Shown: piece after piece, positions 8,633-64,000 of the stretch
Position numbering within the stretch: the first letter of the stretch is position 1
Layout: each line of letters opens with the position of its first letter
Source of the DNA: Pseudomonadales bacterium
GTDB taxonomy: Bacteria; Patescibacteriota; Microgenomatia; UBA1400; PJMF01
DNA length: 64,000 nt
Direction of reading: 5' to 3'
Assembly (NCBI GenBank): GCA_020632265.1
Contig: JACKFW010000001.1
Coordinates: 599,272 to 663,271, forward strand
The notes under the pieces: generated by a model
Database searches by the model: none
Seen by the model: the letters and a program-made list of their open reading frames with translations, nothing else
What the model was told of the DNA's origin: nothing
Translations under genes and position numbers: made by a program

Positions 8633-10288
<1,656 letters not shown>

Positions 10289-42111: not shown

Positions 42112-42723
42112 ATGAATAATTATTTTAACTCTACCAAAAAAAGATTATTCGATATATTTCTTAGCATTATACTTTTAGTTTTGATATTTCCCCTAGTAAT
42201 AGTGTTACTTCCATTCTTATATTTGAAAATAGGTTATCCAATTATATTTAAGCAAGAAAGATTTGGAAAAAATAAAAAAATATTTACTATCTATAAAATT
42301 AGAACTATGAAAATTGGATCGGAAGCTAAGCAAAAATCATTATCAAAAGCTAATATTGCTCCGATACCTATGTTTAAGGTTGAAGATGATCCAAGATTCA
42401 TTTCTTTAGGAAAAATTATTTCTAAACTCGGCATTGATGAATTACCACAATTGTTAAATATATTAAAAGGTGAAATGAGCTTTGTTGGACCACGTCCTCT
42501 TCCAGTTTATGAAGCTGTCAAGCTTTCCTCTTCATGGAACTTTAGATATGAAGCCAGACCAGGATTAATATCTTTTTGGGCTCTTTCACCAAAAAGGTAT
42601 GAGTCACTTAGTAAATGGAAAGAGCTTGAAAAAAACACCCTTAGGATCAACTCTGTTAAAGAAGAAGTGGCACTTGTCTTTAAAGCAATCGATCAAATAA
42701 TAATTAAACGAATTCATTTATAA
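42112..42723 (+). CDS. Bacterial sugar transferase: small polyprenyl-phosphate hexose-1-phosphate transferase (WbaP/WcaJ C-terminal-domain type), the priming enzyme. 203 aa.
   Basis: KRLFDIFLSIILLV..., GKNKKIFTIYKIRTM and DELPQLLNILKGEMSFVGPRP signatures. Confidence 0.8.
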   Translation: MNNYFNSTKKRLFDIFLSIILLVLIFPLVIVLLPFLYLKIGYPIIFKQERFGKNKKIFTIYKIRTMKIGSEAKQKSLSKANIAPIPMFKVEDDPRFISLGKIISKLGIDELPQLLNILKGEMSFVGPRPLPVYEAVKLSSSWNFRYEARPGLISFWALSPKRYESLSKWKELEKNTLRINSVKEEVALVFKAIDQIIIKRIHL

Positions 42724-45044: not shown

Positions 45045-45920
45045 ATGCAAATTGCTTTAATTGGATATGGATATTGGGGTCATAAAATTTATAAAACTTT
45101 AAGTAAGATAATTTCGTCAAAAAATATCTCGGTTGTAGACATAAATATCAATGATTCAACAGGTAAACTTAAAATTGAATCAATTATTAATATACTTTCG
45201 GATGATAAAATTAATCATGTTATTATCGCTACTCCAGAAGAAACCCACTATAAAATTGCAAAAATTTGTCTAGAAAACTCAAAGAATGTTTTCGTTGAAA
45301 AACCACTTTGTTTAAAAAAGAATGAGGCTATTGAACTACATCAACTGGCAAATAAAAAGAATCTAGGACTTTATGTTGACTATATATTTCTTTTCGATCC
45401 CTATGTAAGAAAGATTAAAAGCATTATTGACCGTGGCACTTTAGGAAGATTGCTTCATATAAAATCAATCCGTCACTCGATAAACATTAATAAACCAAAT
45501 ATAACTGTATTCGATGACCTGGCTACTCACGATATTTATTTAGGCAAGTTCTTTTTTGAAAATTATTGTAAAAAGTTTGCAACTTTAAATGAATCAGTTC
45601 AAGAAGCACAAGTTAATCAAGTCAACCAAGCTTCAATTGTTTTTTATTATGGCAAAAATACTCTTTCAGCAAATTACAGCTGGGTTCAGCCAACTTCCAA
45701 AAGAGTCATGACGTTTATAGGCGATTTAACAACCTTGGTATGGGATAAGAACATGAAATCCTTATATCTGTATAAAAAACAAAAACGAATTAAAAAGATA
45801 GAAATAAAATCTAGCGATTCCGCACTAGAACTTTCAATAAAAGAATTTCTTTTTAATAAACCAAAAAGTAACTATGCAAATGATGTAGAACTTTTAGAGA
45901 ACATTAATGCAAATTCATAA
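45045..45920 (+). CDS. Gfo/Idh/MocA-family NAD(P)-dependent oxidoreductase (WbpB-like sugar 3-dehydrogenase candidate), 291 aa.
   Basis: N-terminal Rossmann IALIGYGYWGHK and an EKPL motif (VFVEKPLCL). Confidence 0.65.
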   Translation: MQIALIGYGYWGHKIYKTLSKIISSKNISVVDININDSTGKLKIESIINILSDDKINHVIIATPEETHYKIAKICLENSKNVFVEKPLCLKKNEAIELHQLANKKNLGLYVDYIFLFDPYVRKIKSIIDRGTLGRLLHIKSIRHSININKPNITVFDDLATHDIYLGKFFFENYCKKFATLNESVQEAQVNQVNQASIVFYYGKNTLSANYSWVQPTSKRVMTFIGDLTTLVWDKNMKSLYLYKKQKRIKKIEIKSSDSALELSIKEFLFNKPKSNYANDVELLENINANS

Positions 45921-45957
45921 GAATTATTAATATTTACATTATGTTAAAATCAATTTC

Positions 45958-47064
45958 ATGAAGAAAATACCCTTATTTGATCTAAAACGACAACATTTTT
46001 TAATTAAAAAAAATGTTCTTAAAAGTTGGGAACAAATTTACGATAAGAATCAGTTTACCAGCGGTGATGAAACTAATAATTTTGAAAAAAAATTTGCAAA
46101 ACTCTGTAATGTTAAATATTCCCTAGGAATTCATTCTGGAACCGACTCTCTTATCATTGCACTTAGTGCAGCTGGAATCAAAGATGGAGATGAAGTCATT
46201 ACTACGCCATGCACTTTTTCGGCTTCATCTGATTGCATTGTTCACGTTGGTGCAAAACCTGTATTCGCTGATGTATTATCGAATACTGGAAATATAGATC
46301 CGACAGAAATTGAAAATAAAATAACTTCAAAAACAAAAGCAATTTTATTAGTTCATCTGTATGGAGTACCTTGTAAAATGGATGAAATAATTAAAATTGC
46401 CAATGATAATAATCTATTAATAATTGAAGACGCATCTCATGCTCATGGGAGTCTTTACAAAAAAAAACCAGTTGGTTCATTTGGTCTAGCTGGTTGTTTT
46501 TCACTTTATCCGTCGAAGTCTCTAGGGGCGCTAGGAAATGCAGGTATTATTACTTCAAATAATAAGTCATTTATAAAAAAATCTAGAATGTTAGCTAATC
46601 ATGGAATAAAAAATTTGAAGACTAAGTATATTCATTATTTTTCTGGTTTTAACAAATTAATTGATAACTTACAATCTGCAGCGTTGAATTGTAAATTGCC
46701 ATACATACAAAAGGTAATTAATAGGAAATTAGAAATAGCTAATCAATACAATAATGCTTTTGAACAAATCGGTTTGAAAGGAATGTATTGGCCTAAATAT
46801 GTTGTTCCATCAATATATATATATTCTTTTCAAACTAAAAGAAGAAAGAAAGTTATCAATATTTTTGAAAAAAACGGCATTTCAACTGGAGTCTATTACC
46901 CCATTCCTCTCCACTTACAACCTTCAATGAAATTTCTTGGATATACCAAAGGTGACTTTCCCAATGCAGAACTTTTTTTTAAACAAACTTTATCTTTGCC
47001 AATTTTCCCAGAACTCACTAACAGGGAAATTAATAAAGTGATTTTCGCAATTAAGCAACTATGA
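45958..47064 (+). CDS. DegT/DnrJ/EryC1/StrS-family PLP-dependent sugar aminotransferase (WbpE-like), 368 aa.
   Basis: Fold-type I aminotransferase layout. The GTDSL, DASHAHG and FSLYPSKSLGALG segments are typical of the DegT family. Confidence 0.8.
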   Translation: MKKIPLFDLKRQHFLIKKNVLKSWEQIYDKNQFTSGDETNNFEKKFAKLCNVKYSLGIHSGTDSLIIALSAAGIKDGDEVITTPCTFSASSDCIVHVGAKPVFADVLSNTGNIDPTEIENKITSKTKAILLVHLYGVPCKMDEIIKIANDNNLLIIEDASHAHGSLYKKKPVGSFGLAGCFSLYPSKSLGALGNAGIITSNNKSFIKKSRMLANHGIKNLKTKYIHYFSGFNKLIDNLQSAALNCKLPYIQKVINRKLEIANQYNNAFEQIGLKGMYWPKYVVPSIYIYSFQTKRRKKVINIFEKNGISTGVYYPIPLHLQPSMKFLGYTKGDFPNAELFFKQTLSLPIFPELTNREINKVIFAIKQL

Positions 47065-49937: not shown

Positions 49938-50915
49938 TTAAAATTTTTCATAAATATTTTGAATTGTACTATACAAACCAATCTTAAACTCTGTCTTTGA
50001 TTTCCAACCCAAACTTCTTAACTTCGAACTATCCAGCATTCTTCTCTGAGAGCCTTCTGGTTTTGTTGTATCGTAAAAAATTTTTAGTTTTTTATCATTA
50101 AAAAACTTTGCAATTAGCTCCACTACTTCTTTAACTGTTTTCTCACAATTAGAATCTACATTATAAACTTCTCCAGCAACACCTCTTTCAGCTAAAACTA
50201 ACAAGGCATTTACTACATCATCTACATAAATAAATGATCGCTTTTGATTTCCGCTACCGAATATTTCAACTTTCTTATCAGCCTCAATAAATTTTCTAAT
50301 TACAACGGGAATAAAATGTCCCATTTCATCATAATTATCGTCTTCTCCATAGACATTAATAAATCTTACAATCACAGTATCTAATCCGGTATCTTTATAG
50401 TACCAATTGGCTAAATATTCGCCCATTTGCTTGGCAAGCGCATATCCAAGCTTTGACTTTTCGGGCTCACCACCGGCTGCAGATTCTGGAGTTGGAATTT
50501 GATTTACCATTGCGTCTGTAGAATATATGCTTGCAGAACTAGCTTGAATAAATCTTTTTACACTGCCACTTTTTTGAGACATCTTAAGGGGCATCATCTG
50601 AAGCAGCATATTTTGCTCAAACATTACCTCTGTTCTGCCCAAATCAAAATCGACACCGGTATTCAATGCTGCTAAATTGAAAATTATTTCTTGGTTTTTA
50701 AAATACTTTTGAGAAGATTTCAAGTTTGTTACATCTGCTTTATAAAAATTAATTTTATCTTTAATATCAATTAATCGATTAATATTTCCCCTCGAAAGAT
50801 TATCAATAATACTAACCTTAGATCCCAGCAAAGCTAACTTACGAGCTAGATGTGATCCAATGAACCCAGCCCCACCAGTTATCAATACATTTTTATTTAA
50901 AAAATAATCATTCAT
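49938..50915 (-). CDS. NAD-dependent epimerase/dehydratase (extended SDR; UDP-sugar 4-epimerase-like), 325 aa.
   Basis: VLITGGAGFIGSHLARKL Rossmann motif and YALAK (YxxxK). Confidence 0.75.
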   Translation of the reverse strand: MNDYFLNKNVLITGGAGFIGSHLARKLALLGSKVSIIDNLSRGNINRLIDIKDKINFYKADVTNLKSSQKYFKNQEIIFNLAALNTGVDFDLGRTEVMFEQNMLLQMMPLKMSQKSGSVKRFIQASSASIYSTDAMVNQIPTPESAAGGEPEKSKLGYALAKQMGEYLANWYYKDTGLDTVIVRFINVYGEDDNYDEMGHFIPVVIRKFIEADKKVEIFGSGNQKRSFIYVDDVVNALLVLAERGVAGEVYNVDSNCEKTVKEVVELIAKFFNDKKLKIFYDTTKPEGSQRRMLDSSKLRSLGWKSKTEFKIGLYSTIQNIYEKF

Positions 50916-52080
50916 GATAGGTTAATTTTTGAAAAAGGAAGTTTTCAAGCAATTTTTGTGAATAATTTTGCTTGATATTTTTGTATGCGTTTTTTGAAAG
51001 GATTTTGCGCAATTTTTTATTTCTTAATAAAATTATTATACATCTTGCAAAATTATTATCAAAAGAAACTAATAACCCGTCTGTAGAAACGAGTCCCCAT
51101 GATGCTTTTTCTGTTGAAACAACTGGTAAGCCATAACTTATGTAAGTGAGAATTTTTACTTTTATACCAGCATTTATTCTCACTGGAGCAATTGATATCG
51201 TAGCCTGACCGTATTCTTTTTCTAAATCCTTTACATATCCTTTATAAATGATATTTTTATTGTTATTAAAATATGAAATTAGCTCTTTGGTTGCACCTTG
51301 ACCAATAATAACCAGCTTAGCATCGGGAACAAATTTCAAAACATTGGCCCAATGTGAATCAATAAACCACTTAATGCCATCAACATTTTCCTTCCAATTT
51401 AATGTGCCAGTAAAAACAATCCGGTGCCCTTTATTAGAATATATATATTTATTCAAAGGCATAACTGTTGGCATTAAAGAGGTTGTGACGTTTGACGCTT
51501 TTTTTAATCTTAATTCTGTTTTAGGACTAATAGCCCATATTTGATCAACTTTCCTCATATAGAAGTAATCATAAATAAAGCTCTTAATATATTCATGAAA
51601 ATAAAAGAGTTTCTTTAAATAACTGGTTTCAGAAATAAATCTCTGCCAAAAAAGGCTTGTAAAATCCTCATCATCTATATAAATTTTATGGACATCAATA
51701 TTTTTATTTAAATACTGTAGCGTAGAATAACCATCAAATATTACATTTGAATAAGACTTACGAGTGAGCAAATCAGCTAAAAGCATTTCTAAATCATGAT
51801 TAAATAATCTTCTAATAGTGGCCGGAACAACTGAAAAAATAATGTGTGCAATCTTTTTGTAAAACGCTAACGATAATTTATTTTGTCTTTTATTTTTAAC
51901 TGTAAAAATTTTTAAATTTTTATGTTTAAAATTGTGAACTTTAAATTCTTCAAAATGAAAACAACAAACGTCAATTTTATACCCCTTTTTTAATAGTACC
52001 TCGAGAGTATTCCTTGTTTTAACGCTGGTTCCATTCAAACCAGAGGGAAAATCTTCAGTGATAAATAATATTTCATTCAT
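50908..52080 (-). CDS. Glycosyltransferase, GT-B fold (GT4-like), 390 aa.
   Basis: The C-terminal half has a GT4-type nucleotide-binding layout. Overlaps the upstream and downstream genes. Confidence 0.55.
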   Translation of the reverse strand: MNEILFITEDFPSGLNGTSVKTRNTLEVLLKKGYKIDVCCFHFEEFKVHNFKHKNLKIFTVKNKRQNKLSLAFYKKIAHIIFSVVPATIRRLFNHDLEMLLADLLTRKSYSNVIFDGYSTLQYLNKNIDVHKIYIDDEDFTSLFWQRFISETSYLKKLFYFHEYIKSFIYDYFYMRKVDQIWAISPKTELRLKKASNVTTSLMPTVMPLNKYIYSNKGHRIVFTGTLNWKENVDGIKWFIDSHWANVLKFVPDAKLVIIGQGATKELISYFNNNKNIIYKGYVKDLEKEYGQATISIAPVRINAGIKVKILTYISYGLPVVSTEKASWGLVSTDGLLVSFDNNFARCIIILLRNKKLRKILSKNAYKNIKQNYSQKLLENFLFQKLTYHE

Positions 52081-52128: not shown

Positions 52129-53223
52129 ATGAAAATGGCAATTGTTCATGACGGATTTTTACATGTTGGAGGTGCTGAAAAAGTTTTACTTAATTTAATT
52201 GAAATATTTCCTAAGGCAGATTTATTCATTCCGATAATAAACAAGGATTATAAATCTAAAATAGAAAATTTAACAAAAGGAAAAATCCATTCAACTTTTT
52301 TTTCAAAAATTTCTTTTTTTTATAAAAACGCTAGTTTATTAAAACCGCTTTTAATTTTTTATTGGGAAAAACTTAACTTGTCTGAATACGACCTAGTCTT
52401 ATCATCATCTCATTCTTTTAACTCAAAACTTGTTAACGTCCCAAAAAGCGCAATTCATATATCTTATGTTTATACTCCTCCGAGATATTTATCAACACAA
52501 TTTAATGAATTTCAAATTCTAAACAACAAAGCTATCAAGCTAGTATTTGATCCTTTATTAAATTGGCTTAAAAAAAAAGATTTTGAAAGTGGAAGAAACC
52601 CTAAGATCTTAATCAGTATTTCTAAAGAAATTCAAAAAAGAATAAGAAACACCTACAATCGTAACAGTCTATTGGTTTATCCCCCAGTGGAACTATCTAC
52701 AAGAACTACTAAGATTGGCGACGGAAAATATTATTTGTTCTTCTCAAGGTTGGTAAAACAAAAAGGAGCTGAATTAGCGGTCGAAGCTTTTACAACCTTA
52801 AATCTGCCTTTAGTCGTAGTCGGGACTGGACCAGAACTTAAAAAATTAAAATCAATTGCTGGGCCTAATATTATTTTTAAAGGATTTGTAAAAAACAAAG
52901 AACTGGAAAAAATATTTGCAAATACAAAGGCACTGATTAACTGCTCTATCGAGGAGGATTTTGGAATGGTTACTATTGAAGTTGCTTCAAGAGGAATTCC
53001 TACAATCGGGTTTTTCTCCGGAGGTTTAATGGAAACCATTATTAATAAAAAAACAGGCATATTTTTTCGTCAATATACTGTAAAATCATTAACTATAGCT
53101 ATTAAAAAGTTTGAGATTATGAAATTTAATAAAAATGAGTGTCACAATTTTGCCAAAAGGTTCTCTAAAAAAATATTTGAGGTAAAAATGAAAACAATAG
53201 TTAATCATTATCTAAAAAAATAA
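52129..53223 (+). CDS. Glycosyltransferase family 4 (GT-B), 364 aa.
   Basis: N-terminal MAIVHDGFLHVGGAEKV. A C-terminal domain with Glu-containing motifs (the EX7E region). Confidence 0.65.
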   Translation: MKMAIVHDGFLHVGGAEKVLLNLIEIFPKADLFIPIINKDYKSKIENLTKGKIHSTFFSKISFFYKNASLLKPLLIFYWEKLNLSEYDLVLSSSHSFNSKLVNVPKSAIHISYVYTPPRYLSTQFNEFQILNNKAIKLVFDPLLNWLKKKDFESGRNPKILISISKEIQKRIRNTYNRNSLLVYPPVELSTRTTKIGDGKYYLFFSRLVKQKGAELAVEAFTTLNLPLVVVGTGPELKKLKSIAGPNIIFKGFVKNKELEKIFANTKALINCSIEEDFGMVTIEVASRGIPTIGFFSGGLMETIINKKTGIFFRQYTVKSLTIAIKKFEIMKFNKNECHNFAKRFSKKIFEVKMKTIVNHYLKK

Positions 53224-53226
53224 ATT

Positions 53227-54186
53227 ATGAAGACTGCAATTATTACTGGGGCCGGTGGTTTTATTGGTTCACACTTGGCAAAATTTCTCAAAAAAAAAGG
53301 GTACTTTGTTACTGGAATTGATATTAAGAAACCAGAATTTTCAAAAACTGCTGCTGACAAATTTATAATTGCTGATTTAAGAGACCCCAAGATCGTAAAA
53401 AAACATTTATATAAAGTTGATGAGCTTTATATGCTGGCTGCTGATATGGGCGGTATGGGCTTTATAAGCTGTAATGGACCTCAAATTGTTCATAACAACG
53501 CAATTATTAATCTCAACCTACTTCATAGATCAGCAGAGCTCAGAATTGGCAAAGTATTTTTCTCATCCTCTGCATGCGCGTATCCTGAAGAAAAACAGCT
53601 CTCAACAAAGAATTCAGGTCTAAAAGAGCAAGAAGCATATCCGGCAAATCCAGATACAGCTTACGGTTGGGAGAAAATCTTCACAGAACAAACTTGCATG
53701 GCATATCACAAAGAACTTGGTCTAAAAATAGCTATTGCTAGATTTCATAACATATATGGTCCAGAGGGTACATATGAGGGTGGACGAGAAAAGTCTCCCG
53801 CAGCTTTGTGTAGAAAGATAGCAATGGCCAAAAAAACTGATTCAATTAATGTCTGGGGTGACGGAAAACAAACACGTTCTTACTGCTATATTGATGATTG
53901 TCTCGAAGGCATTTTTAAGTTAATGCAATCAGATTATGATATGCCTTTAAATATTGGATCAGACAGATTGGTCACAATTAACAAAATGGTCGATATTATT
54001 GCAAAAATTGCTAAAAAGAAAATCTCAAAACATTATGATTTAAGCAAGCCTCAGGGAGTAAGAGGTAGAAACTCTGATAATACTCTCATAAAAAAAACTC
54101 TTGAATGGTCTCCAAAAATAACGATAGAAGAAGGTCTGGAAAAAACATACAAATGGATTGATTCTCAATTAAAAAAGAATAAATAA
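53227..54186 (+). CDS. NAD-dependent epimerase/dehydratase with similarity to UDP-glucuronate decarboxylase (UXS/ArnA-like), 319 aa.
   Basis: AIITGAGGFIGSHLAKFL. PANPDTAYGWEKIFTEQTCMAY aligns with the UXS P..P..YDEGKRVAETMCYAY segment. Confidence 0.6.
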   Translation: MKTAIITGAGGFIGSHLAKFLKKKGYFVTGIDIKKPEFSKTAADKFIIADLRDPKIVKKHLYKVDELYMLAADMGGMGFISCNGPQIVHNNAIINLNLLHRSAELRIGKVFFSSSACAYPEEKQLSTKNSGLKEQEAYPANPDTAYGWEKIFTEQTCMAYHKELGLKIAIARFHNIYGPEGTYEGGREKSPAALCRKIAMAKKTDSINVWGDGKQTRSYCYIDDCLEGIFKLMQSDYDMPLNIGSDRLVTINKMVDIIAKIAKKKISKHYDLSKPQGVRGRNSDNTLIKKTLEWSPKITIEEGLEKTYKWIDSQLKKNK

Positions 54187-54929
54187 ATTCTTTTTATTAG
54201 ATATTTAGGTATTAAAATTAAATATCTCCTCCACAATCTTAATGGAGAAACTAGCAATCTGAATAACCACTCTAATCCCATACTTTGAACCATGGCGGGA
54301 GCCATAGGTTGTTTATCTGCCAAAAAATCAAACGCAGCTCCAACACAAAGAATAGACGTAGCAGGTAGCAACTTTGACCAACGGGAAGCTAACTTTACTT
54401 GTTTAGGGGAACTTAATCCTATCCAAAGAACATCAATCTTGTGTTTGATAATGTCAGCAATATAATTTGCCTCTTCCACAAGAGTTAAATCTCTAAAAGG
54501 TGGGGAGATCATACCAAGAACAGTAAGATTAGGATTTATTTTTTTTACATTAATACTAAGCTTATCTAAAGTGCTTTGGGAGGATCCATAAAATAGATGC
54601 CGTATTTTTTTATCACTCATTGCGAGAATATCTTTGGTTAAATTCGGTCCATACACTCTTTCAACTCGTTGACTTTTCTTCAACATATTTCGCCACTTAT
54701 TTTTTAAACTGAAAAACCAAACTAAAGGCATGCCATCTGTTACACAGAAATCTATTGATCTGTAATCCTTTTGTAAGGATACATTCTCTTCAATAGATGC
54801 TAAATCATTTAAAGAAATTGGCAAAAGAGTAAATTTTTCTTTTCTGCTAATTTTTCTAGAAATAAACTCGGTGACCGATGATCTTGTTCCAATTAAAAAA
54901 TTTATGTTTTCAAGTTTTATTCTCTTCAT
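54165..54929 (-). CDS. WecB/TagA/CpsF-family glycosyltransferase (GT26), 254 aa.
   Basis: The CVTDGMPLVW motif matches the DGMPLVW signature of WecG/TagA. Confidence 0.6.
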   Translation of the reverse strand: MKRIKLENINFLIGTRSSVTEFISRKISRKEKFTLLPISLNDLASIEENVSLQKDYRSIDFCVTDGMPLVWFFSLKNKWRNMLKKSQRVERVYGPNLTKDILAMSDKKIRHLFYGSSQSTLDKLSINVKKINPNLTVLGMISPPFRDLTLVEEANYIADIIKHKIDVLWIGLSSPKQVKLASRWSKLLPATSILCVGAAFDFLADKQPMAPAMVQSMGLEWLFRLLVSPLRLWRRYLILIPKYLIKRIYLFFFN

Positions 54930-55864
54930 TTTTGTACAATCTGCATATCTTTTATTCTTAATTTATAAAAATGCCGTAACACTTTGACATAAATATATGT
55001 TAATCCAACATTAATTGAGATCAAGAAGGTTTTTAATAAGCTCAATGAATGTTTATTTTTAAACTCTACAAATAATTCAAGTTTTGATAACAAAGGTCTC
55101 TGAGTATTAATTCCACTCCTAATTCGTGACCACTTTTTTTCATAAACTAAATGATTTAACAATGTAAATGAGGCTTTTTTATAATATTGCCAAAAATTGA
55201 CAGGATCTTTATGAACTACTTTAATAGTTTTATCGTAATATGCCAATCCTCTTGCTAGAAAAATTTGCATTCCTAGATCGCAATCTTCGCTTGCGCCTTG
55301 GGCATATTTTAATAATTGAATATCAAAATTTATTCTGTGTTTATCCAAAAATTTTTTATTATAAATTACATTTTTAGAATCTAATATCTCATGATCCAAA
55401 ATTATGTTTTTCTTGATAGCACCGATTTTTCCAATTTCATCAACATAAGATCTAGATAAGGCAACAATACTTTTTTTATGATATTCGCTGGAGTGTCCTA
55501 AAATTGCACTAAATTTTGGCAAGCGAGCAGTAATTAGCTTAATCCTACTAAACCAGTCAAAGTCTGCGACACAGTCATCGTCAATAAAAGCTATCCAATC
55601 ACCCTTTGCTTCCTTCAAGCCTCGATTGTATACATGAGGATAGCCTACTAAGCGATGTTTTACATAACTTACTTTAAATTTAACATTTTTAGAAAAGTTT
55701 TTTACAACTTTTTGAGTTTCATCCGACGAATTGTTGTCAACCACAACTAGATTTTCTAAAGATATGGACTGGCAAGCTAAAGAACCAAGACAATGCTTAA
55801 GTTCTTCTTGTCGATTTTTTGTAACCACTACTACTGTAATTCTATTATCCATTGCAATCTTCAT
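54926..55864 (-). CDS. Glycosyltransferase family 2 (GT-A), 312 aa.
   Basis: ITVVVVTKNRQEEL, VVDNNSSDET and FIDDDC (DxD). Confidence 0.75.
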   Translation of the reverse strand: MKIAMDNRITVVVVTKNRQEELKHCLGSLACQSISLENLVVVDNNSSDETQKVVKNFSKNVKFKVSYVKHRLVGYPHVYNRGLKEAKGDWIAFIDDDCVADFDWFSRIKLITARLPKFSAILGHSSEYHKKSIVALSRSYVDEIGKIGAIKKNIILDHEILDSKNVIYNKKFLDKHRINFDIQLLKYAQGASEDCDLGMQIFLARGLAYYDKTIKVVHKDPVNFWQYYKKASFTLLNHLVYEKKWSRIRSGINTQRPLLSKLELFVEFKNKHSLSLLKTFLISINVGLTYIYVKVLRHFYKLRIKDMQIVQK

Positions 55865-56745
55865 GATGTTAATTTCAATAACCTATTAAACAATAATATT
55901 TGTTTCGAAACTATTAATAACCAAAATTGCTGAAACTTCGTAAGCGAATATTTATTTCCATAATTTTTTACAAGTCTAGTGATTGGAATTGGATTATTCT
56001 TTAAACTGTACCTTCTAATTAAATTCCACTTCTTCTCCAAACTATTATATGATTTCCAAGACAGATAATCTTTCTTTATAAAATCAATCAAATGGCATGG
56101 GTCCTTATGGCTAATAATCATTTTTTTATTAACAACTGCTTTACCACTAGCATTTTGAATTTGTATTCCAAAATCGCAGTCCTGAGCAGCACCGAGAACA
56201 TATGATGACCTGCTGTTATCAAATGATAAATGTCTAGATTTTAAGAATTTATTGTTAAATACAATATTCTTTGTATCTAGAACTTCAAGGTCTAAAACTT
56301 TATTCGCGTTTAGTGATCTCTGTTTCCAATCGTTATCAAACATATTTGTAGTTTGTGAAAAAACATTATCTGAATAATAAGTTTCACACCATCCCATAAT
56401 AGCCGCATGCTTTGGATATTTCTTTATGCTACTTAAGATTTCACTAATCCAGTTAATATCCGCAACGCAATCATCATCAATAAAAGCTACCCAATTACCT
56501 TTTGCTTCTTTTAAGCCTCTATTGTAAATTTTAGGATAACCTATTGATTTAGTATTTATATATTTAACAGCAATATTTACATTTACAATCATATTCATAA
56601 GAAGTTGTTTTGTGTCATCATTTGAGTTATTATCTATCACAATGATCTCTTTAGGTAAAAGACTGTTTGAAAGTAATGAACCTAGACAATGAGATAGCTC
56701 TAAAGCCCTGTTCTTCGTAACGATCACAATTGATAAATGAACCAT
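55861..56745 (-). CDS. Glycosyltransferase family 2 paralog, 294 aa.
   Basis: LSIVIVTKNRALEL, VIDNNSNDDT and FIDDDC. Confidence 0.75.
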   Translation of the reverse strand: MVHLSIVIVTKNRALELSHCLGSLLSNSLLPKEIIVIDNNSNDDTKQLLMNMIVNVNIAVKYINTKSIGYPKIYNRGLKEAKGNWVAFIDDDCVADINWISEILSSIKKYPKHAAIMGWCETYYSDNVFSQTTNMFDNDWKQRSLNANKVLDLEVLDTKNIVFNNKFLKSRHLSFDNSRSSYVLGAAQDCDFGIQIQNASGKAVVNKKMIISHKDPCHLIDFIKKDYLSWKSYNSLEKKWNLIRRYSLKNNPIPITRLVKNYGNKYSLTKFQQFWLLIVSKQILLFNRLLKLTS

Positions 56746-57963
56746 AATATGACGACTTCCAAAAAAAATATTATTTATATCACTCAGCTTTTACCGTATC
56801 CCCCAATTTCTGGAGGAAGAATTAAATCTCTCAATACCATACAAACATTATCAAAGAAATTCAATATCATTCTAATATGTTTTAGTAAAAATAGACCTTC
56901 AAAAAAAAGTTTAGCTTATCTTAAAAAATATGTAAAAGTAATTAAAGTATTCCATTTGCCTAAAATTGACGAAGAGCCTAAGGAAGATATCAAAAAATTG
57001 CTTAAAAACTATTTTAGGTTTATCCCAAATTATGTTTCTCAATTTCACTCAAATAAAGCCACAACATACATAAATAATCTTATCCAAAAAATAAGTCCTA
57101 CTGTAATTCATATCGATCATATTAATATGGCGCAATATTTACCAAAAAATAAAAAACAAGCTTGGATCTTAGAAGAACATAATGTTGAATACCAATTAGC
57201 CTGGAAAAGGTTCCTTAATTTCCAGGAAATAAAGAAAACAAAGGTTTATTTATTAATTGAATTTGTACTTACCTACGCATATGAGCGAAAATTTTTGCGA
57301 AAGTTTGATCATATTTTTTCTATTTCAGAATTTGATAAGCTTGCACTAGAAAAAAAATTTTATCTTAATAATATTAGTGTTCAAGCACCTGTTTACATAG
57401 ACAATGGGGAAAAAAGATCGTTAATTGAAAAACATAAAAAAGAAATTCTCTTTATTGGAGATATGACTTGGATGCCGAATATAATAGCAGTTAAATGGTT
57501 TATCGATAAAATTTTTCCTCTGATCCTGAGACTAGAAGGATCTACAACTTTAATTATTGTTGGGAAAACTGAGAATGATTTTAAACATCAGTATGACGAC
57601 CATAAGAATATTAGGTTTTTAGGTTTTCAAATGAATATTAGTGAATATTTTAAAAAGGCTTCTTTATTCGTTTTACCATTTAAAGTCGGAGGCGGGGTTA
57701 GGATAAAAGCACTCACGGCTTTTTCACACTCATTGGCAATTGTTACAACTAAACTTGGAATTCAAGGAATCAAAGGCACAAATTATAGAGATTTTTTGAT
57801 AGCAGAAAACGAAAAGCAGTTTGCCAAAGCCTGCTTATTATTAATTAGAAATGAGAAAATTAATAAATTAATTGGGGAAAACGGATGGAAATACTTACAA
57901 AAAAATCACTCCAAAAATAATAACTCTGAATTTTTAAAAAAATATAATAAACTTATTCAATAA
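56737..57963 (+). CDS. Glycosyltransferase family 4 (GT-B), 408 aa.
   Basis: GT4-like C-terminal domain: ILFIGDMTWMPNIIAVKWFI... Confidence 0.6.
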   Translation: MNHNMTTSKKNIIYITQLLPYPPISGGRIKSLNTIQTLSKKFNIILICFSKNRPSKKSLAYLKKYVKVIKVFHLPKIDEEPKEDIKKLLKNYFRFIPNYVSQFHSNKATTYINNLIQKISPTVIHIDHINMAQYLPKNKKQAWILEEHNVEYQLAWKRFLNFQEIKKTKVYLLIEFVLTYAYERKFLRKFDHIFSISEFDKLALEKKFYLNNISVQAPVYIDNGEKRSLIEKHKKEILFIGDMTWMPNIIAVKWFIDKIFPLILRLEGSTTLIIVGKTENDFKHQYDDHKNIRFLGFQMNISEYFKKASLFVLPFKVGGGVRIKALTAFSHSLAIVTTKLGIQGIKGTNYRDFLIAENEKQFAKACLLLIRNEKINKLIGENGWKYLQKNHSKNNNSEFLKKYNKLIQ

Positions 57964-58771
57964 TTTCAATTATTTTTGCTCTGCTCACGACTTCAGGAAA
58001 ATGAAACCAAACATCTTCTCCAATCTTAATTGCTGCTCCATCAAGAGTCATATAAAACCCTTCTATGTCTTTTATAGCAACTACCGTGACGACGGCATAA
58101 ACATCTTTGTTTTGATCCTTAGTTAAATAAATTCTATCTCCCACTAGCTTAATTTGAGATAATTTACTATCTTCAACACGAACACTTTCAATTCTTGCTA
58201 ACACTCTACCCTTTGAATCTTTCATTTCCATTCCTTCTTGATAAGAACTTGCGAGCCAATCTTCAATATTTTCCATTTTTACACGTATCTTTTTTTGATA
58301 TCTTTGCTCAGGCTCAGAATCTAATGATTCTATCAAACCACTAACATTATTTGAACCAAAAGTTAAATCTATTGGCTTTCCTTTTTGAATTGGTTGGAAA
58401 TTATATAAATAAGTTTGACTTTTTTTATTATATGAAACCTTTAAGCTCAAATCCACGTAAGCTCGTTTATTTGGTCCTCCCAGAGAATATATTTCTAAAT
58501 CAGTAATTTTAGCGACCTCTTCACCAAACGAATTATAAGATACCATGCCAACGCTGAGATCATTTATATACCAATAGGGAGATGGTTCTCCATTCCACCA
58601 CAAATCACTATCAGAAATAGATATTCTTGCGCTTATCCAAATACTTTTTCTTGAAATTCTATTATATATAAAAATTGAAAAAATAATTAAAATTGTAAAT
58701 ACAACAACTAAATCAAAATAATGCACCTTTTCAAATTTGAAATTTTTTATTTTGTGTATAATACTTTTCAT
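57953..58771 (-). CDS. Hypothetical membrane-anchored protein, 272 aa.
   Basis: N-terminal TM helix. No recognisable domain. Confidence 0.4.
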   Translation of the reverse strand: MKSIIHKIKNFKFEKVHYFDLVVVFTILIIFSIFIYNRISRKSIWISARISISDSDLWWNGEPSPYWYINDLSVGMVSYNSFGEEVAKITDLEIYSLGGPNKRAYVDLSLKVSYNKKSQTYLYNFQPIQKGKPIDLTFGSNNVSGLIESLDSEPEQRYQKKIRVKMENIEDWLASSYQEGMEMKDSKGRVLARIESVRVEDSKLSQIKLVGDRIYLTKDQNKDVYAVVTVVAIKDIEGFYMTLDGAAIKIGEDVWFHFPEVVSRAKIIEIIE

Positions 58772-60263
58772 GATTAATAAATTAATTAAGTTTTTTTACT
58801 CAAAAGAATTAAGAACGTTCTCTATTTTATCTTTATTTCATTTATCACTTTATTTTAGCACTAGCAATAAAATAACGTTTCTTTTTTCTATTTTTTTATT
58901 AGTAGCACTATACCAGCATCTAAAAAAATTACCACTCACACTGTTTTATGTTTTTCTAATTATGCTTCCATTTGCTAAAGGAAAGGGAATAGACATATTA
59001 TTACTTGATAAAAAATATGTCATAAATTATTCATTCTTTAATATTAGCTATTTATTTCCTCTATATCTATCAACATTTTATTTAAGTTTGTTTTATCTTT
59101 ATATTTTGAGAACTCTAATATTTACAAAAATAAAAATGAATAATCTTAGCAAAGAAAATAAACTAGTGATTTCAATTTTTCTATTATTCATAATTACATC
59201 CTGCGCAGGATCAATATCCAATATCTTTGAAATTCCAATTTTCCTTTCTTCAATGCAGTTAGTTATACTTCTACTAATTTTTTTTATTCCATTTGTATTG
59301 CGCACATTTTATATGAAACTAAATGATTTTTATATGGTTATTGCAAACTCCACACTTTTTCAGTCAATTTGGTTGACCCTTCAAACATTAAATAATGGTC
59401 ACTTAAACAGGGATATTGAGGTCTTTTTATTCAGCTCAAAAATAAGTATTCAATCATCAGAAAATAGCAACTTGTTAAGGTTGCCAGGAACTTTTTATGA
59501 AAGTAGTATATTAGGAACTTTTTTAATTACAAACATTTCAATTCTCATTTTATATCTAATTAACAATAATAAAATTCAAATGAGAAAAAAAACAATGATA
59601 TTCTTGTCAATAGCTATGGGTACAATTGCAATAATTTTAACTGGAAGTAGAGCAATTTACTTAATTTCATTTTTAATTTTAATTATTCTCCTAAAAACAA
59701 AACATTGTTTATCAAAGGATAAAATTAAAGCTTTGATATTATCGATTAAAAAAATCAAACTCATAATCCCAATTATATTTGCAATACTTTTTGTTTGGCC
59801 ATATTTTATCAACCGAATATCGTCCGCCAATCAAGTTTTCTCTAAAGAAGGAAGTGGCTCATATAGAATTCAATTATCAGAATACGCTCTTAAATTAACA
59901 GATAAAAAACCATTATTTGGGGTTGGCTTGAATTTGTCAGAATTTTATCTCGCTACTTCATTCCCTGGCGAAGATTACTTTTTTGATGCAGCTTACCCGC
60001 ACAATATAATTATTCAAATCTTAGCTGAAACAGGGTTGGTTGGAATCACGTTATTTATATATTTTATTTACCTAATATTATTTAGACCAACAATCAAAAG
60101 GAACTTGAACAACTTTAACGAGTTTCACTTGGCCTCAATTGTTTTCTTAATGTGTGCTCAATTTTACCCAATTTTCATAAACCATATGGAAATTATTTCT
60201 TACCTATTCCTATATTTAGGATTTGCTGCATTTTCTAATCAAAAAAAAATATATGAAAAATAA
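58737..60263 (+). CDS. O-antigen ligase/polymerase-family (Wzy_C) membrane protein, 508 aa.
   Basis: HNIIIQILAETGLVGITLF signature (H..x..E.G..G). LTGSRAIYL periplasmic-loop motif. Confidence 0.55.
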   Translation: MKFFILCIILFMINKLIKFFYSKELRTFSILSLFHLSLYFSTSNKITFLFSIFLLVALYQHLKKLPLTLFYVFLIMLPFAKGKGIDILLLDKKYVINYSFFNISYLFPLYLSTFYLSLFYLYILRTLIFTKIKMNNLSKENKLVISIFLLFIITSCAGSISNIFEIPIFLSSMQLVILLLIFFIPFVLRTFYMKLNDFYMVIANSTLFQSIWLTLQTLNNGHLNRDIEVFLFSSKISIQSSENSNLLRLPGTFYESSILGTFLITNISILILYLINNNKIQMRKKTMIFLSIAMGTIAIILTGSRAIYLISFLILIILLKTKHCLSKDKIKALILSIKKIKLIIPIIFAILFVWPYFINRISSANQVFSKEGSGSYRIQLSEYALKLTDKKPLFGVGLNLSEFYLATSFPGEDYFFDAAYPHNIIIQILAETGLVGITLFIYFIYLILFRPTIKRNLNNFNEFHLASIVFLMCAQFYPIFINHMEIISYLFLYLGFAAFSNQKKIYEK

Positions 60264-61359
60264 AAAAGTGATAGTAATTCCTTTCACTCTTCCTTGGGAT
60301 TGGAGCGCAGATTTCCAAAGACAAACATGCTTGGAATTGGCAAGGAAAAATATCCAAGTTTTCGCATATATGAGTGATGATTCATATTTTTTTATTAAAA
60401 ATAAAAAAAGACATTATCCAAAAATAAAAAATGTATCGTTTTATGTTCCAAGATATTATGTTCCCTTAAGAAGATTTAAAATAATTGAAGAATTAAATAA
60501 ATATCTTAGTCTTATAATTTTTACCTGCAAAATTTTTAGCAAAAAAAAAATAGTATGGATATTTGATCCTCAGTTTCACTACTTTCCAAAATTCTTCAAA
60601 AACTCGAAGTCACTTTATGATTGTGTAGATTTTTTTGGGATTGAACACGAAAGTGATGAAAATAAACTAATTAATAATACTGACATGCTTTTTGTTAATT
60701 CCCATACATTATTGTCTTTTCATAAAAATAAAATAAAAAATATCTTTTTAGTCCCTCAAGGTTTTAACTCATCGGAATTTAACAAGAATATCAAGTTAAT
60801 TAAAAAATCAAAAAACAATAAAAAACCAATTATAGGATACGCTGGAGGCATAAATTATAGAATTGACTACAAGCTGCTAATTAAGCTAATAAGTAGAAAT
60901 CCTCAGTGGAATTTCTCATTTTGGGGACCAATACAAGAATGCCAAAAAGAAAAATTAAAAGACATTCTCAGACAAATCAAAAAACTCAAGCAGTTTTCCA
61001 ACGTCCAGTTTAGCTCAACAAAAAATAAATTAAAATTAATGAACGCGATAAACAGTTTCGATGTTTGTATAATACCGTATGATATAAAGCAAAGTTTTAA
61101 CTTAAATTCATATCCAATGAAAGTTTTTGAATATTTTTACTTAGGCAAGCCCGTGATCTCAACTAAAATTTCTGAATTAAAATTAGAGAAATTTAAAGAT
61201 TTGATTTTTACAAGTAATAATAGTAAAAGCTGGGAAAAGAAAATTAAAAATATCTTAGATTCCCCATGGCCAGCAAAATTAAAAAATAAACAACGTACTC
61301 TTGCAATTGAAAATAGCTGGGAAAATAAAGTTAATAAAATTCTAGAAATAATAATCTAG
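60223..61359 (+). CDS. Glycosyltransferase, GT-B fold, 378 aa.
   Basis: The C-terminal half is GT1/GT4-like (IIGYAGGINYRIDYKLL...). Confidence 0.5.
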   Translation: MLHFLIKKKYMKNKKVIVIPFTLPWDWSADFQRQTCLELARKNIQVFAYMSDDSYFFIKNKKRHYPKIKNVSFYVPRYYVPLRRFKIIEELNKYLSLIIFTCKIFSKKKIVWIFDPQFHYFPKFFKNSKSLYDCVDFFGIEHESDENKLINNTDMLFVNSHTLLSFHKNKIKNIFLVPQGFNSSEFNKNIKLIKKSKNNKKPIIGYAGGINYRIDYKLLIKLISRNPQWNFSFWGPIQECQKEKLKDILRQIKKLKQFSNVQFSSTKNKLKLMNAINSFDVCIIPYDIKQSFNLNSYPMKVFEYFYLGKPVISTKISELKLEKFKDLIFTSNNSKSWEKKIKNILDSPWPAKLKNKQRTLAIENSWENKVNKILEIII

Positions 61360-61704: not shown

Positions 61705-62808
61705 TTGTTTCAAAAGATGATTTTCTCTAATAAACTAAAACTCATAAAATGGAAAATATTCATTTATTTCGAACAGTGTCTCTCTATTTTTTTATTGAAT
61801 TATTTACTTATTCCATTTGTTAAAATATTCTTCTTCTTTGAAATTTTTAAATCTAAATTCAGTAAAAAAATTGAAGTGGCAGAATTAAAAGCAACCGTTT
61901 TTTATTGTAGTGGAAAAAATGACTTTTTTTTAACTCTTATTTCAATTTTTAGCTTAGCAACACATGTAAAAAATATAGAATATTATATTTATCATGAAAA
62001 ATATAATATTTTTCATGAACAAATTGTTGATTATCTAAATAAAAAAATCCATATTCATTTAATTGATAAGAAAACCATAAATGCAACGATTTATGGTATG
62101 ACTAAGTACAAAAATATTAAATCTTTTATGGAATATGGTTGGTCTGGAAAAAAATGCTTCTTACCGTTAATTTTCAAGAAGACTAAGAAATCTATTCTAA
62201 TAGATAGTGATACTATTTTTTTTAGCAAACCTGTCGAAATCATAGAATGGATAAACAAGGAAAACAAACATAATCTTTATCTTAAAGATTATAAGAACTT
62301 TTCCATAATATCAAAATCAGAAGCAAAAACAATTTTGGGGGAAAAACTATCTTTTGATATGCTAAATTCTGGTTTATTATGCTTTAATATTGATGCTATT
62401 TTTTCAAAATTAAGTTTGATTGAAATAAATGTCTTTATTGAAAAAATATTAAAAATTGTTCAAACCAGATTGACATTTGATGCTATTGAAAGAAGCAAAT
62501 TTTTTTATGTTTTTCCCTTGCTTGAACAAAGTCTTCATTTATTAATTTTCAATAAATCTATATCAAAATCATTACCTAAAAAGAAATATTTTGTCTTACC
62601 AAAACATACGATCTTTGGAGAAAATATCAAAAAAGCGATTTTTATTCACTATACAGGAGATAGTTTGCGCTTGCACATATATAAGCAATTATTTTTATCA
62701 CTTTTTAGCTATTTAATTAAACAGAACAGCACTCTGTGGTTTATAAATAAAAATAGATGTCTATCATGCTCTCATCCGAAAATTCCATTTTGGTATAAGT
62801 TATTATGA
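61705..62808 (+). CDS. Putative nucleotide-diphospho-sugar (GT-A-like) transferase, 367 aa.
   Basis: An ILIDSDTIFF DxD-like motif only. Weak assignment. Confidence 0.3.
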   Translation: MFQKMIFSNKLKLIKWKIFIYFEQCLSIFLLNYLLIPFVKIFFFFEIFKSKFSKKIEVAELKATVFYCSGKNDFFLTLISIFSLATHVKNIEYYIYHEKYNIFHEQIVDYLNKKIHIHLIDKKTINATIYGMTKYKNIKSFMEYGWSGKKCFLPLIFKKTKKSILIDSDTIFFSKPVEIIEWINKENKHNLYLKDYKNFSIISKSEAKTILGEKLSFDMLNSGLLCFNIDAIFSKLSLIEINVFIEKILKIVQTRLTFDAIERSKFFYVFPLLEQSLHLLIFNKSISKSLPKKKYFVLPKHTIFGENIKKAIFIHYTGDSLRLHIYKQLFLSLFSYLIKQNSTLWFINKNRCLSCSHPKIPFWYKLL

Positions 62809-63849
62809 TTATTTAAAAAGATTCAACCAAATCAGGGTAGCTTTCTTTAAAGTAGTAAAATATTTTTCATATTTTTCCAACTTCAACCAATTTATTTTAT
62901 CTAATAATTCTATATAGCAATCAATGGGTGTTGTTTTTTTTAATTTTACTTCATCAACCAGTTTCCAGAATATTTCATTAACTTCAATCCCCTTTGCTTC
63001 CTTTTGCAAATTATTATAAACGTTTGATGCTCGTTCATGCCAAACAATTGGTGACCCGCTTACAGCAGCTAACTTTAAATGGTCTATTATTTTTTTAGTA
63101 ATAACACCAGACCAAATATCATCAAACCTATCAAAGCCCCATGCTTTTCCATTCTTATCTTCACCCATGAGAAGTTGATAAAGAAGAGGAACTATTTCTC
63201 TACTAAATCCTAAATTCATTACACTCATTGGAAAATAAACACCTTTAGGAAATACATGCAGGATATTTGGTAATTCAGGAAAACTTTTTTCTAATAAATG
63301 TAGTTGAGTGGTTGCATCCAAGTCAGGGATATTCGCCCAAATTCCGTGACTTAGAACTACTTGTTTTTTATTTCTTATTTCATAAGGAAAACCCCTCATT
63401 AAACTAAGTTCTCTAAAAGGATACGTTGGAGACCAGTTGGTTGCTACCTTAAGTTTTAAGTTTTCTATATGATTTTTTACAAAGTCTTGACTAAATGGTT
63501 TGCAATCATCATCCATGGTGATAATTATATCTGCTCCATTTTGCCAAGCTTTATAAAAGCCGTAAGATCTTACAGCTGAAGTACGATAAGGAAAAATCCA
63601 AGCTTTGTTTTTAAACTCTCTTTCAATGTCTTGATGCGAATAATGAAATAATGATCGACATCTTATTTTAGGGATTTTGATTTCTTTTTTTATATGATCC
63701 TCAATGATAATAAGATCCACAGATTCAAATAGATTAAGTTCATTCCATTTTTTAAGAAATTCTAGATTTCTTATTGTTGGGATGACTATAGAAACAGAAA
63801 CCATAATAAATATTCCAAAGTAAATTTTATCTTTATGTATATAATACAC
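62809..63849 (-). CDS. GT75-family protein: homolog of reversibly glycosylated polypeptide / UDP-L-arabinopyranose mutase. 346 aa.
   Basis: Multiple collinear blocks match plant RGP/UAM: IVIPTIRNLEFL, ITMDDDC, SHGIWANIPDLDATTQL, FPKGVYFPMSVMNLGF, FDRFDDIWSG and PIVWHERASN. Confidence 0.7.
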   Translation of the reverse strand: MYYIHKDKIYFGIFIMVSVSIVIPTIRNLEFLKKWNELNLFESVDLIIIEDHIKKEIKIPKIRCRSLFHYSHQDIEREFKNKAWIFPYRTSAVRSYGFYKAWQNGADIIITMDDDCKPFSQDFVKNHIENLKLKVATNWSPTYPFRELSLMRGFPYEIRNKKQVVLSHGIWANIPDLDATTQLHLLEKSFPELPNILHVFPKGVYFPMSVMNLGFSREIVPLLYQLLMGEDKNGKAWGFDRFDDIWSGVITKKIIDHLKLAAVSGSPIVWHERASNVYNNLQKEAKGIEVNEIFWKLVDEVKLKKTTPIDCYIELLDKINWLKLEKYEKYFTTLKKATLIWLNLFK

Positions 63850-63908
63850 TATTATCTATGTTTGATATGATTCAACTTGAATGTATTACTTAAATAATAA
63901 TTTTAAAA

Positions 63909-64000
63909 ATGAATAGAAAATTATTTGCTACTTTATCTGATCAAAACGCATTATCTCAAGTTAAAATAAGTTTAACTTCTTTAATTCAAAATTCAGCTTT
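63909..64000 (+). CDS. Partial ORF (MNRKLFATLSDQNALSQVKISLTSLIQNSA...) running off the window end.
   Basis: ATG at 63909 with no stop before the window end. Too short to classify. Confidence 0.2.
   Translation, partial: MNRKLFATLSDQNALSQVKISLTSLIQNSA

Follow-up and report, generated by a model that had tools for sequence, protein, structure and literature searches.

The 64,000-nt stretch of contig JACKFW010000001.1 (GenBank assembly GCA_020632265.1) analysed here, referred to below as the window, carries near its right-hand end a gene for a protein of glycosyltransferase family 75 (GT75), the family of the plant reversibly glycosylated polypeptides (RGP). We consider it highly probable that this protein is an active nucleoside diphosphate (NDP)-pyranose/furanose mutase which supplies a surface-glycan pathway. 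The original prediction, made from the letters of the window, had described a homologue of the plant RGPs, or UDP-arabinopyranose mutases (UAMs), in a bacterial surface-glycan locus and had reconstructed a plant-like route to UDP-arabinofuranose around it. The observation itself was confirmed, whereas the pathway reconstruction was not. Coordinates of the features discussed are collected in Table 1, and residues are numbered from the first residue of the 331-aa form of the protein.

The product of 62809-63804 belongs to the GT75/RGP family. The profile PF03214 (RGP) matched it along positions 6-337 of 342 (E=2e-52, 178.9 bits, with a cut-off of 23.8), the Pfam scan of the protein revealed no competing family, and no NCBIfam model was found for it. 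Plant sequences were database entries retrieved with a plant RGP1-like bait, and only database sequences were analysed. Identity to the class-1 UAMs of plants and algae was 36-38% over the full length (176-194 bits). Six sequence blocks had been quoted as common to the window protein and the plant enzymes, and all six were found: VIPTIRNLEFL (residues 7-17), DDDC (98-101), SHGIWANIPDLDATTQL (152-168), FPMSVMNLGF (191-200), FDDIWSG (227-233) and PIVWHERASN (252-261). They coincide with the blocks of Raphanus UAM2 (P0122) when the two proteins are aligned over their full length with BLASTP (36% identity, 337 columns, E=7e-57), an agreement far beyond chance. The AlphaFold2 (AF2) model of the protein, built on 43 homologues, reached a predicted local distance difference test (pLDDT) score of 94.6 and a predicted template modelling (pTM) score of 0.93. 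When the PDB was searched with Foldseek, strong matches were restricted to GT75 structures, namely rice UAM2 (8cid; TM-score 0.84/0.81, root-mean-square deviation (rmsd) 3.4 A) and the bacterial mutase MtdL (TM 0.75-0.79), after which the scores dropped to ~0.4 for generic GT-A folds. Model and matches agree with the architecture of the family, which combines a GT-A Rossmann-like N-terminal region with the GT75 core and a C-terminal helical region.

The length of 346 aa originally given for the product is that of the minus-strand open reading frame (ORF) 62809-63849 counted from its GTG, and in this sense it stands. The GTG, however, falls within the 104-bp divergent intergenic region, and the protein itself is likely to be 331 aa long and to start at the ATG at 63804, since an identical 331-aa database protein (P0001) exists for the source metagenome-assembled genome (MAG) and the N-termini of homologues agree with it. 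A scan for promoters and terminators around the gene gave no signal above chance.

The working parts of the active site are known for MtdL: the DDD triad D109-D111, the nucleophile R159, D195, R257 (contacting beta-phosphate and sugar), D260 (the proposed general base), the Mn2+ ligand H287 and R289, which contacts the diphosphate (PMC9937993). The autoglycosylated arginine of rice OsUAM1, R158, is the equivalent of MtdL R159 (PMC6861824). For the comparison, the sequences of MtdL and 8cid were transcribed from HMMER alignments, and the MtdL transcription matched all 20 published residue numbers. All catalytic residues of the plant UAMs, whose conservation had been put forward as a check on the original prediction, were found to be present in the window protein (Table 1), including D161, the equivalent of MtdL D195. 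Across an alignment of 190 bacterial homologues, D98, D99, D100, R137, D161, D163, R226, D229 and H256 are each kept in 189 or 190 sequences; D98 and D100 are invariant, and there is one exception each at D99 and R226. Position 258, an arginine in the window protein, is either K or R across the clade. The class-2 RGPs of plants are inactive as mutases, their DDD having changed to DDN and the equivalents of R257 and H287 having been lost (PMC9937993, PMC6861824). The window protein and its 190 homologues have kept the three features that class 2 has lost, which suggests selection on catalysis and argues strongly for mutase activity.

By analogy with MtdL and the plant UAMs, the enzyme would be a flavin-independent, Mn2+-dependent mutase acting via a transient arginine-sugar adduct. 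D100 and H256 would hold Mn2+ on the diphosphate, while the beta-phosphate would be bound by R226 and R258. With D229 taking up its proton and D161 keeping it in place, R137 would then attack C1; the sugar ring would open and reclose via O4, and return of the NDP would give the NDP-furanose. The latter would be the donor used by one of the cluster's many glycosyltransferases, and the cluster would specify a lipid-linked surface glycopolymer exported by a Wzy/ABC-transporter pathway.

The window protein is 28% identical to MtdL (over 241 aa, 94 bits) and 25% identical to the class-2 protein 8cid (89 bits); a profile of its clade scored 156 bits against 8cid and 108 bits against MtdL. The residues lining the substrate are plant-like: P9, S76, C101, M196 and S260 stand where MtdL has T13, D87, N112, Q229 and H292, respectively. 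MtdL loses its activity on GDP-L-fucose with either of the substitutions D87S and Q229A, and its T13P variant binds GDP about 28-fold more weakly (PMC9937993). The MtdL signature, comprising S86-D87, DDDN, (S/T)-Q229-N and H292, is replaced by T-S, DDDC, V-M-N and S. In a neighbour-joining tree with 100 bootstraps, the plant RGPs (100/100) and an MtdL-type clade (100/100) were separated from each other and from a multi-phylum bacterial clade (70/100). The window protein falls into the last of these, outside both the plant/algal class-1 clade and the MtdL clade, and groups with the homologues from loci L003 and L004 (98/100). In this tree the window-type bacterial clade appears as the sister group of the plant RGPs, its own support being 70/100. 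Recent transfer from a plant to a bacterium was considered and rejected, because the bacterial clade is deep and includes many phyla, with the sequences of the candidate phyla radiation (CPR) nested inside. Positions 86/87/228 differ between its subclades (N-A-S, V-S-S, T-D-G and T-S-G), so that substrates may differ within the clade.

Although the source record bears the label 'Pseudomonadales bacterium', LepA of the window (34195-36006) has its nearest named relatives in a Patescibacteria group (79% identity), Pacebacteria (72%) and Microgenomates (65%), the GC content is ~31%, and the nearest relatives of the GT75 protein come from Roizman-, Gottesman-, Woese- and Chisholmbacteria. On these sequence criteria the host is a CPR (Patescibacteria) bacterium and the label is wrong. 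The same mislabelling probably affects other loci recorded as 'uncultured Pseudomonadales/Gammaproteobacteria bacterium' (L003, L004, L007, L010 and others).

The GTDB species genomes that encode a relative of the window-type GT75 number at least 497; the matches listed came from Patescibacteria, Chloroflexota, Planctomycetota, Acidobacteriota, Bacteroidota, Dormibacterota, Solirubrobacterales and Myxococcota. When 1.84 billion cluster representatives (50% identity) were searched exhaustively with HMMER, 1,298 clusters matched at E<=1e-3, 292 of them at E<=1e-30. A bacterial GT75 is thus less exceptional than was originally supposed: CAZy already includes bacterial and archaeal members of the family, and MtdL and Hyg20 have been characterised (PMC6861824, PMC9937993). 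The family is known, as are its fold and its chemistry, and no new kind of system is involved. Our literature search retrieved no paper connecting GT75/RGP with CPR/Patescibacteria, and none on the structure 8cid.

The GT75 gene lies in a glycan cluster that extends from about 42.1 kb to the end of the window and beyond (Table 1), in agreement with the surface-glycan locus originally described. The components of the presumed pathway are the initiating transferase Bac_transf, the WecG/TagA-family transferase, four GT4, two GT2 and one GT8 glycosyltransferases, two Wzy_C proteins and a Wzm/Wzt-like ABC transporter; the genes for the last of these (ABC_tran and ABC2_membrane), together with a further GT2 gene, are found on the source contig beyond the GT8 gene. 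The cluster also contains several unannotated ORFs. The membrane-anchored orphan protein encoded next to the GT75 gene has a 38%-identical homologue at the same position in L004, matched no Pfam or NCBIfam family, gave only an unusable model (pLDDT 40) in single-sequence AF2 modelling and shows no similarity to the GT8 gene.

Table 1. The GT75 gene, its active-site codons and the surrounding glycan cluster; positions refer to the window.
Feature	Position	Strand	Remark
GT75/RGP gene, predicted Mn2+-dependent NDP-sugar pyranose/furanose mutase	62809-63804	-	331 aa from ATG
Alternative GTG start of the GT75 gene	63849	-	346 aa
Codons D98-D99-D100 (DDD/DxD, metal/nucleotide-sugar; = MtdL D109-D111), then C101 as in plant DDDC	63505-63513	-	
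Codon R137 (= OsUAM1 R158, MtdL R159; autoglycosylated/nucleophilic Arg)	63394-63396	-	190/190 homologues
Codons R226-F-D-D229 (= MtdL R257, D260)	63118-63129	-	
Codons H256-E-R258-A-S260 (= MtdL H287, R289; S260 plant-like, MtdL H292)	63025-63039	-	
AT-rich divergent intergenic region between GT75 and GT8, 104 bp	63805-63908	.	
Bac_transf initiating phosphoglycosyl transferase	42112-42723	+	approximate left edge of the cluster
742-aa Wzy_C-type membrane protein	42718-44946	-	
GFO/IDH/MocA oxidoreductase and DegT-family aminotransferase (amino-sugar branch)	45045-47064	+	
Extended short-chain dehydrogenase/reductase, epimerase-like, candidate NDP-sugar 4-epimerase	49938-50915	-	
GT4 glycosyltransferase	50908-52080	-	
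GT4 glycosyltransferase	52129-53223	+	
GDP-mannose 3,5-epimerase orthologue	53227-54186	+	
WecG/TagA-family transferase	54165-54929	-	
GT2 glycosyltransferase	54926-55864	-	
GT2 glycosyltransferase	55861-56745	-	
GT4 glycosyltransferase	56737-57963	+	
DUF4330 protein, recurrent neighbour	57953-58771	-	related family in 12/79 loci
Wzy_C membrane protein, O-antigen ligase/polymerase-like	58737-60263	+	
GT4 glycosyltransferase, candidate user of the furanosyl donor	60223-61359	+	
Orphan 367-aa protein, hydrophobic N-terminus	61705-62808	+	convergent with GT75, stop codons abutting
GT8 glycosyltransferase, 5' end	63909-64000	+	divergent, runs off the window

The rest of the window is occupied by housekeeping genes. 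Among them, a single plus-strand ORF (12916-14067) fuses Sua5/YciO/YrdC (TsaC-type) and TsaE domains and is followed by TsaD (14064-15221). An Rfam scan of the whole 64-kb window detected no family at the gathering score and no tRNA, rRNA or riboswitch.

The neighbourhood of window-type GT75 genes was surveyed in 79 loci with up to 10 kb of flank, in which 1,114 ORFs were clustered and the 119 genes immediately flanking GT75 were subjected to a Pfam census. The neighbours are mostly genes for glycan assembly and export: the flanking genes included GT4 (17), GT2 (14), Wzy_C (8) and Bac_transf (6), ABC-2/ABC_tran genes were present in 16-17 of the loci, and WecG and DUF4330 families in 12 each. 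The most frequent specific neighbour is the family of the GT4 gene starting at 60223, found in 17 of the 79 loci and adjacent to GT75 in eight. SDRs (short-chain dehydrogenases/reductases) account for only three of the 119 flanking genes, and neither GLF nor UDP-glucose dehydrogenase (UGDH) nor a nucleotidyltransferase is among their 25 most frequent Pfam families.

Two SDRs of the window cluster had been proposed to supply UDP-xylose (UDP-Xyl) and, from it, UDP-arabinopyranose (UDP-Arap). The one taken for a UDP-xylose synthase (UXS) was found to match Arabidopsis GDP-mannose 3,5-epimerase (GME; 2c59) along its full length (query 5-319, E=1.3e-97, 330 bits), whereas UXS structures scored only ~95 bits. 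It keeps the GME motifs SSAC (catalytic Cys), YGxEK (Tyr-x3-Lys) and GREK (Lys), and its active-site motif reads SSSACAYP, that of UXS being of the S-T-S-E-V-Y-G type. The UXS identity was therefore rejected; scores and motifs identify the protein as a GME orthologue. GME makes GDP-L-galactose, which is the substrate of MtdL, and GDP-L-gulose. Whatever the GT75 protein does, a CPR glycan cluster that includes GME implies a surface polymer containing L-galactose or L-gulose. The other SDR had been called 4-epimerase-like, and an epimerase-like protein it is: its best PDB match was the UDP-hexose 4-epimerase 4zrm (121 bits), the similarity being generically epimerase-like, and its motif 'SSASIYS' has no acid/base Glu/Asp after the catalytic Ser, while YxxxK is present. 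In these families an acid/base Glu in this motif marks decarboxylases and dehydratases. Neither SDR reached a curated NCBIfam cut-off. No UGDH or UXS was found in the window or in the next 3.7 kb of the source contig, GalU and ManC were likewise absent from the housekeeping part of the window, and the UGDH motif G.GG.C[FLIV].KD, sought in the window, in L001 and in the 79 loci, gave a single match, in L043. Since the claimed UXS is a GME, the chain from UDP-Xyl to UDP-Arap is unsupported in the window. The contrast that had been drawn with the decaprenyl-phospho-arabinose route conflates two sugars, because that route delivers D-arabinofuranose and plant UAM makes UDP-L-arabinofuranose, or UDP-L-Araf.

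Taken together, the plant-UAM-like residues of the pocket and the epimerase-type SDR favour a sugar of the UDP-L-arabino/D-galacto type, that is UDP-L-Arap, UDP-D-galactopyranose (UDP-D-Galp) or a derivative, over GDP-L-galactose, and we give this substrate class about an even chance of being the right one. Several observations weigh against an active mutase with such a substrate. Of the UDP-type base pocket (Pro13, Asp42 and Asp86 in MtdL numbering) the window protein has the proline, but its residue 42 is Ile (Asp in plants, Asn in MtdL) and its residue 86 is Thr (Asp in plants, Ser in MtdL). Upstream enzymes for UDP-L-Arap are missing from the region searched, as described above, and the cluster also carries a GME gene, 8.6 kb from GT75; a window-type GT75 and GME occur within 10 kb of each other also in L033, L037, L082 and L087. 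Class-2 RGPs demonstrate that the GT75 fold can be inactive, but those proteins lost R257 and H287, the equivalents of which the window protein retains. The characterised bacterial members of the family are MtdL and Hyg20 only (PMC6861824, PMC9937993), from which the window-type clade is distinct. Finally, plant UAMs convert UDP-Galp only inefficiently (PMC6861824).

Within the favoured class, a UDP-L-arabinopyranose mutase providing a plant-like UDP-L-Araf donor, as originally proposed, is a possible assignment, albeit an unlikely one taken by itself. The nearest relatives of a characterised type are the class-1 UAMs and the pocket residues resemble theirs, yet the window protein lies outside the plant clade and its own locus does not provide the precursor. 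In the related loci L043 and L044 the GT75 gene stands beside a UGDH-family ORF, an SDR with the motif 'SSRE(V/I)YG' (Glu at the UXS/dehydratase position) and a second, epimerase-like SDR, which would fit the series UDP-glucuronic acid (UDP-GlcA) to UDP-Xyl to UDP-Arap; more generally, these gene sets are compatible with UDP-GlcA-derived chemistry leading to UDP-Xyl/Ara or to uronic acids. However, the SDRs match UXS no better than they match epimerases, an AsnB-type amidotransferase in L044 suggests uronic-acid rather than pentose chemistry, and the UGDH-family ORFs are truncated. The latter, at 3280-4104 in L043 (274 aa) and 4498-5199 in L044 (233 aa), are located directly upstream of the 'SSRE(V/I)YG' SDR; relative to the N-domain profile they begin ~70-78 positions late, and the C-terminal domain is missing entirely, a form conserved in two MAGs.

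A flavin-independent mutase of UDP-D-galactopyranose (or of UDP-GalNAc/GalA), acting in place of the flavoenzyme UGM/Glf, is an assignment of the same, low probability. It would need only a 4-epimerase upstream, and an epimerase-type SDR is available in the window cluster. SDR genes are operonic with GT75 in L041 (5 bp apart), L043 (11 bp) and L068 (97 bp); the two that were searched against the PDB, from L041 and L043, gave 4-epimerases (4zrm, 6zl6) as best matches, and when they were tested as UXS, epimerases scored as well or better. D-Galactofuranose (D-Galf) is a common constituent of bacterial glycans, and the absence of GLF from the frequent families of the flanking genes is in line with a replacement of UGM. 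Plant GT75 enzymes can make UDP-D-Galf (PMC9937993), although the inefficiency of plant UAMs on UDP-Galp, mentioned above, argues against this substrate.

Somewhat less probable, in our judgement, is that the window protein is a GDP-L-galactopyranose mutase working with the GME of the cluster, such that GDP-mannose is converted to GDP-L-galactopyranose and the latter to GDP-L-galactofuranose, following the MtdM/MtdL logic of the A201A pathway. Besides the GME orthologue itself, this assignment could draw on the fact that the only characterised bacterial GT75 enzymes use GDP-L-galactose or GDP-L-fucose, and on position 86, where the Thr is small and hydroxylated like Ser86 of MtdL and where introduction of the plant Asp blocks GDP binding (PMC9937993). 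The remaining pocket points the other way: S76 and M196 stand where MtdL needs D87 and Q229, and P9 corresponds to the change that weakens GDP binding in T13P. Linkage was examined from both sides, in the 79 GT75 loci and in 37 metagenomic GME loci with a length of 8 kb or more. A GME orthologue was found in only two of the former (L033 and L037) and a window-type GT75 in only two of the latter, in both cases at a distance (9.2 kb in L082, which is syntenic with the window, and 4.6 kb in L087); a general GME-GT75 linkage was accordingly rejected. In the window itself the two genes are on opposite strands, and the genes between them include five that code for four transferases and the DUF4330 protein. 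Direct coupling was observed on two contigs, L096 (ORFs overlapping by 8 nt) and L099 (8 nt apart), where the GT75 proteins are 42% and 32% identical to MtdL and ~26% identical to the window protein, carry the S-D, DDDN and (S/T)-Q-N signatures and join MtdL at 100/100, apart from the window clade. As the tightly GME-coupled GT75 proteins are of the MtdL type, GDP-L-galactose becomes a less likely substrate for the window enzyme. Residues 86/87/228 showed no pattern with GME linkage (T-S-V in the window, T-S-G in L037, N-S-S in L033). The two contigs are of interest in their own right, since L096 214-1906 and L099 9003-10942 look like GDP-L-galactofuranose operons outside actinomycete antibiotic clusters.

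It is very improbable that the protein is no mutase in vivo but, like the class-2 RGPs, self-glycosylating, a primer, or a subunit with a regulatory or scaffolding role: GT75 proteins do autoglycosylate on the conserved Arg and class-2 RGPs have been retained without mutase activity (PMC6861824, PMC9937993), but the residues lost by the latter are those kept by the window protein and its 190 homologues.

Several features of other GT75 genes and proteins were encountered in the survey. In a number of Microgenomates genomes (L005, L015, L023, L024, L029 and relatives) the GT75 gene is located a few hundred bases from dnaA/dnaN and hence beside the presumed replication origin. One Paceibacterota glycan cluster, in L043, carries two GT75 paralogues, at 5025-6044 (+) and 8873-9919 (-). 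The homologue P0457 (661 aa) contains an intein-like insert of ~345 aa within the active-site motif FP(M/L)-C-G-M-N; the insert begins with 'CFLEKQ', has the LAGLIDADG-like blocks 'LFLAEGN' and 'YFAGDGHV' and ends with 'VVKN' before the C of CGMNLAF. In P0483, P0499, P0504 and P0508 (810-927 aa) the GT75 domain is found at about residues 145-500, and the additional N- and C-terminal regions had no matches among the transferases of the window cluster.

If the window enzyme is an active mutase, ultra-small CPR bacteria make surface polymers that contain furanose, and they do so by the metal/arginine chemistry known from the synthesis of plant cell walls and from two antibiotic pathways, not with the usual flavoenzyme. 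We further raise, as less likely than not, the possibility that CPR and other uncultured phyla rely on the window-type clade as the standard flavin-free source of UDP-L-Araf and/or UDP-D-Galf, the UDP-furanose donors for their envelope glycopolymers. Should this be true, furanosyl sugars would be common on CPR cell surfaces, and the UAM of plant cell walls would be derived from an enzyme of the bacterial envelope, or have an ancient origin in common with one, and would not be a plant invention; the sister position of the clade to the plant RGPs bears on the origin of the plant arabinofuranose pathway. The uncharacterised clade comprises ~1,300 sequence clusters from many uncultured phyla, and a single enzyme assay would suffice to give all of them a function. 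In addition, NDP-furanose donors are hard to synthesise chemically, and GT75 enzymes are of practical interest for this reason (PMC9937993).

Comparison with the known systems places the window enzyme as follows. UGM/Glf, the usual bacterial flavoenzyme, performs an analogous ring contraction to provide furanosyl donors (PMC6861824), but it has an unrelated fold, depends on FAD where GT75 uses Mn2+ and an Arg nucleophile, and shares no sequence relationship with GT75. Campylobacter jejuni HS:15 reportedly makes UDP-L-Araf by means of a Glf-like FAD mutase; our literature search gave no paper on a UDP-Araf mutase of Campylobacter. Class-2 RGPs (OsUAM2 8cid, AtRGP5) include the best structural match of the window protein, yet they are inactive, having lost the three catalytic features that it keeps. 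MtdL (Marinactinospora, A201A) and Hyg20 (Streptomyces, hygromycin A), the pyranose mutases of GDP-L-galactose and GDP-L-fucose, are bacterial like the window protein, share with it the GT75 fold and all residues that mutagenesis or structure has proved catalytic and, as regards the locus, the presence within the same cluster of GME, an MtdM-type precursor enzyme. They differ in belonging to a separate, fully supported clade, in the residues at positions 13, 86/87, 112, 229 and 292, and in coming from antibiotic clusters, whereas the window gene is neither in such a cluster nor operonic with GME. The class-1 UAMs of plants and green algae (RGP1-3, OsUAM1/3) have in common with the window protein the full-length PF03214 domain, the fold, DDDC, the Arg nucleophile, the D/R/D/H catalytic set and, at the equivalents of MtdL positions 13, 87, 112, 229 and 292, the pocket residues P, S, C, M and S, respectively. 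Their third DxD is DYD, while that of the window protein is DLD, the bacterial pattern (PMC6861824), and they have Asp at positions 42 and 86, where the window protein does not. The window protein represents a separate bacterial clade and is encoded in a prokaryotic glycan cluster that lacks the UGDH/UXS/UXE route.

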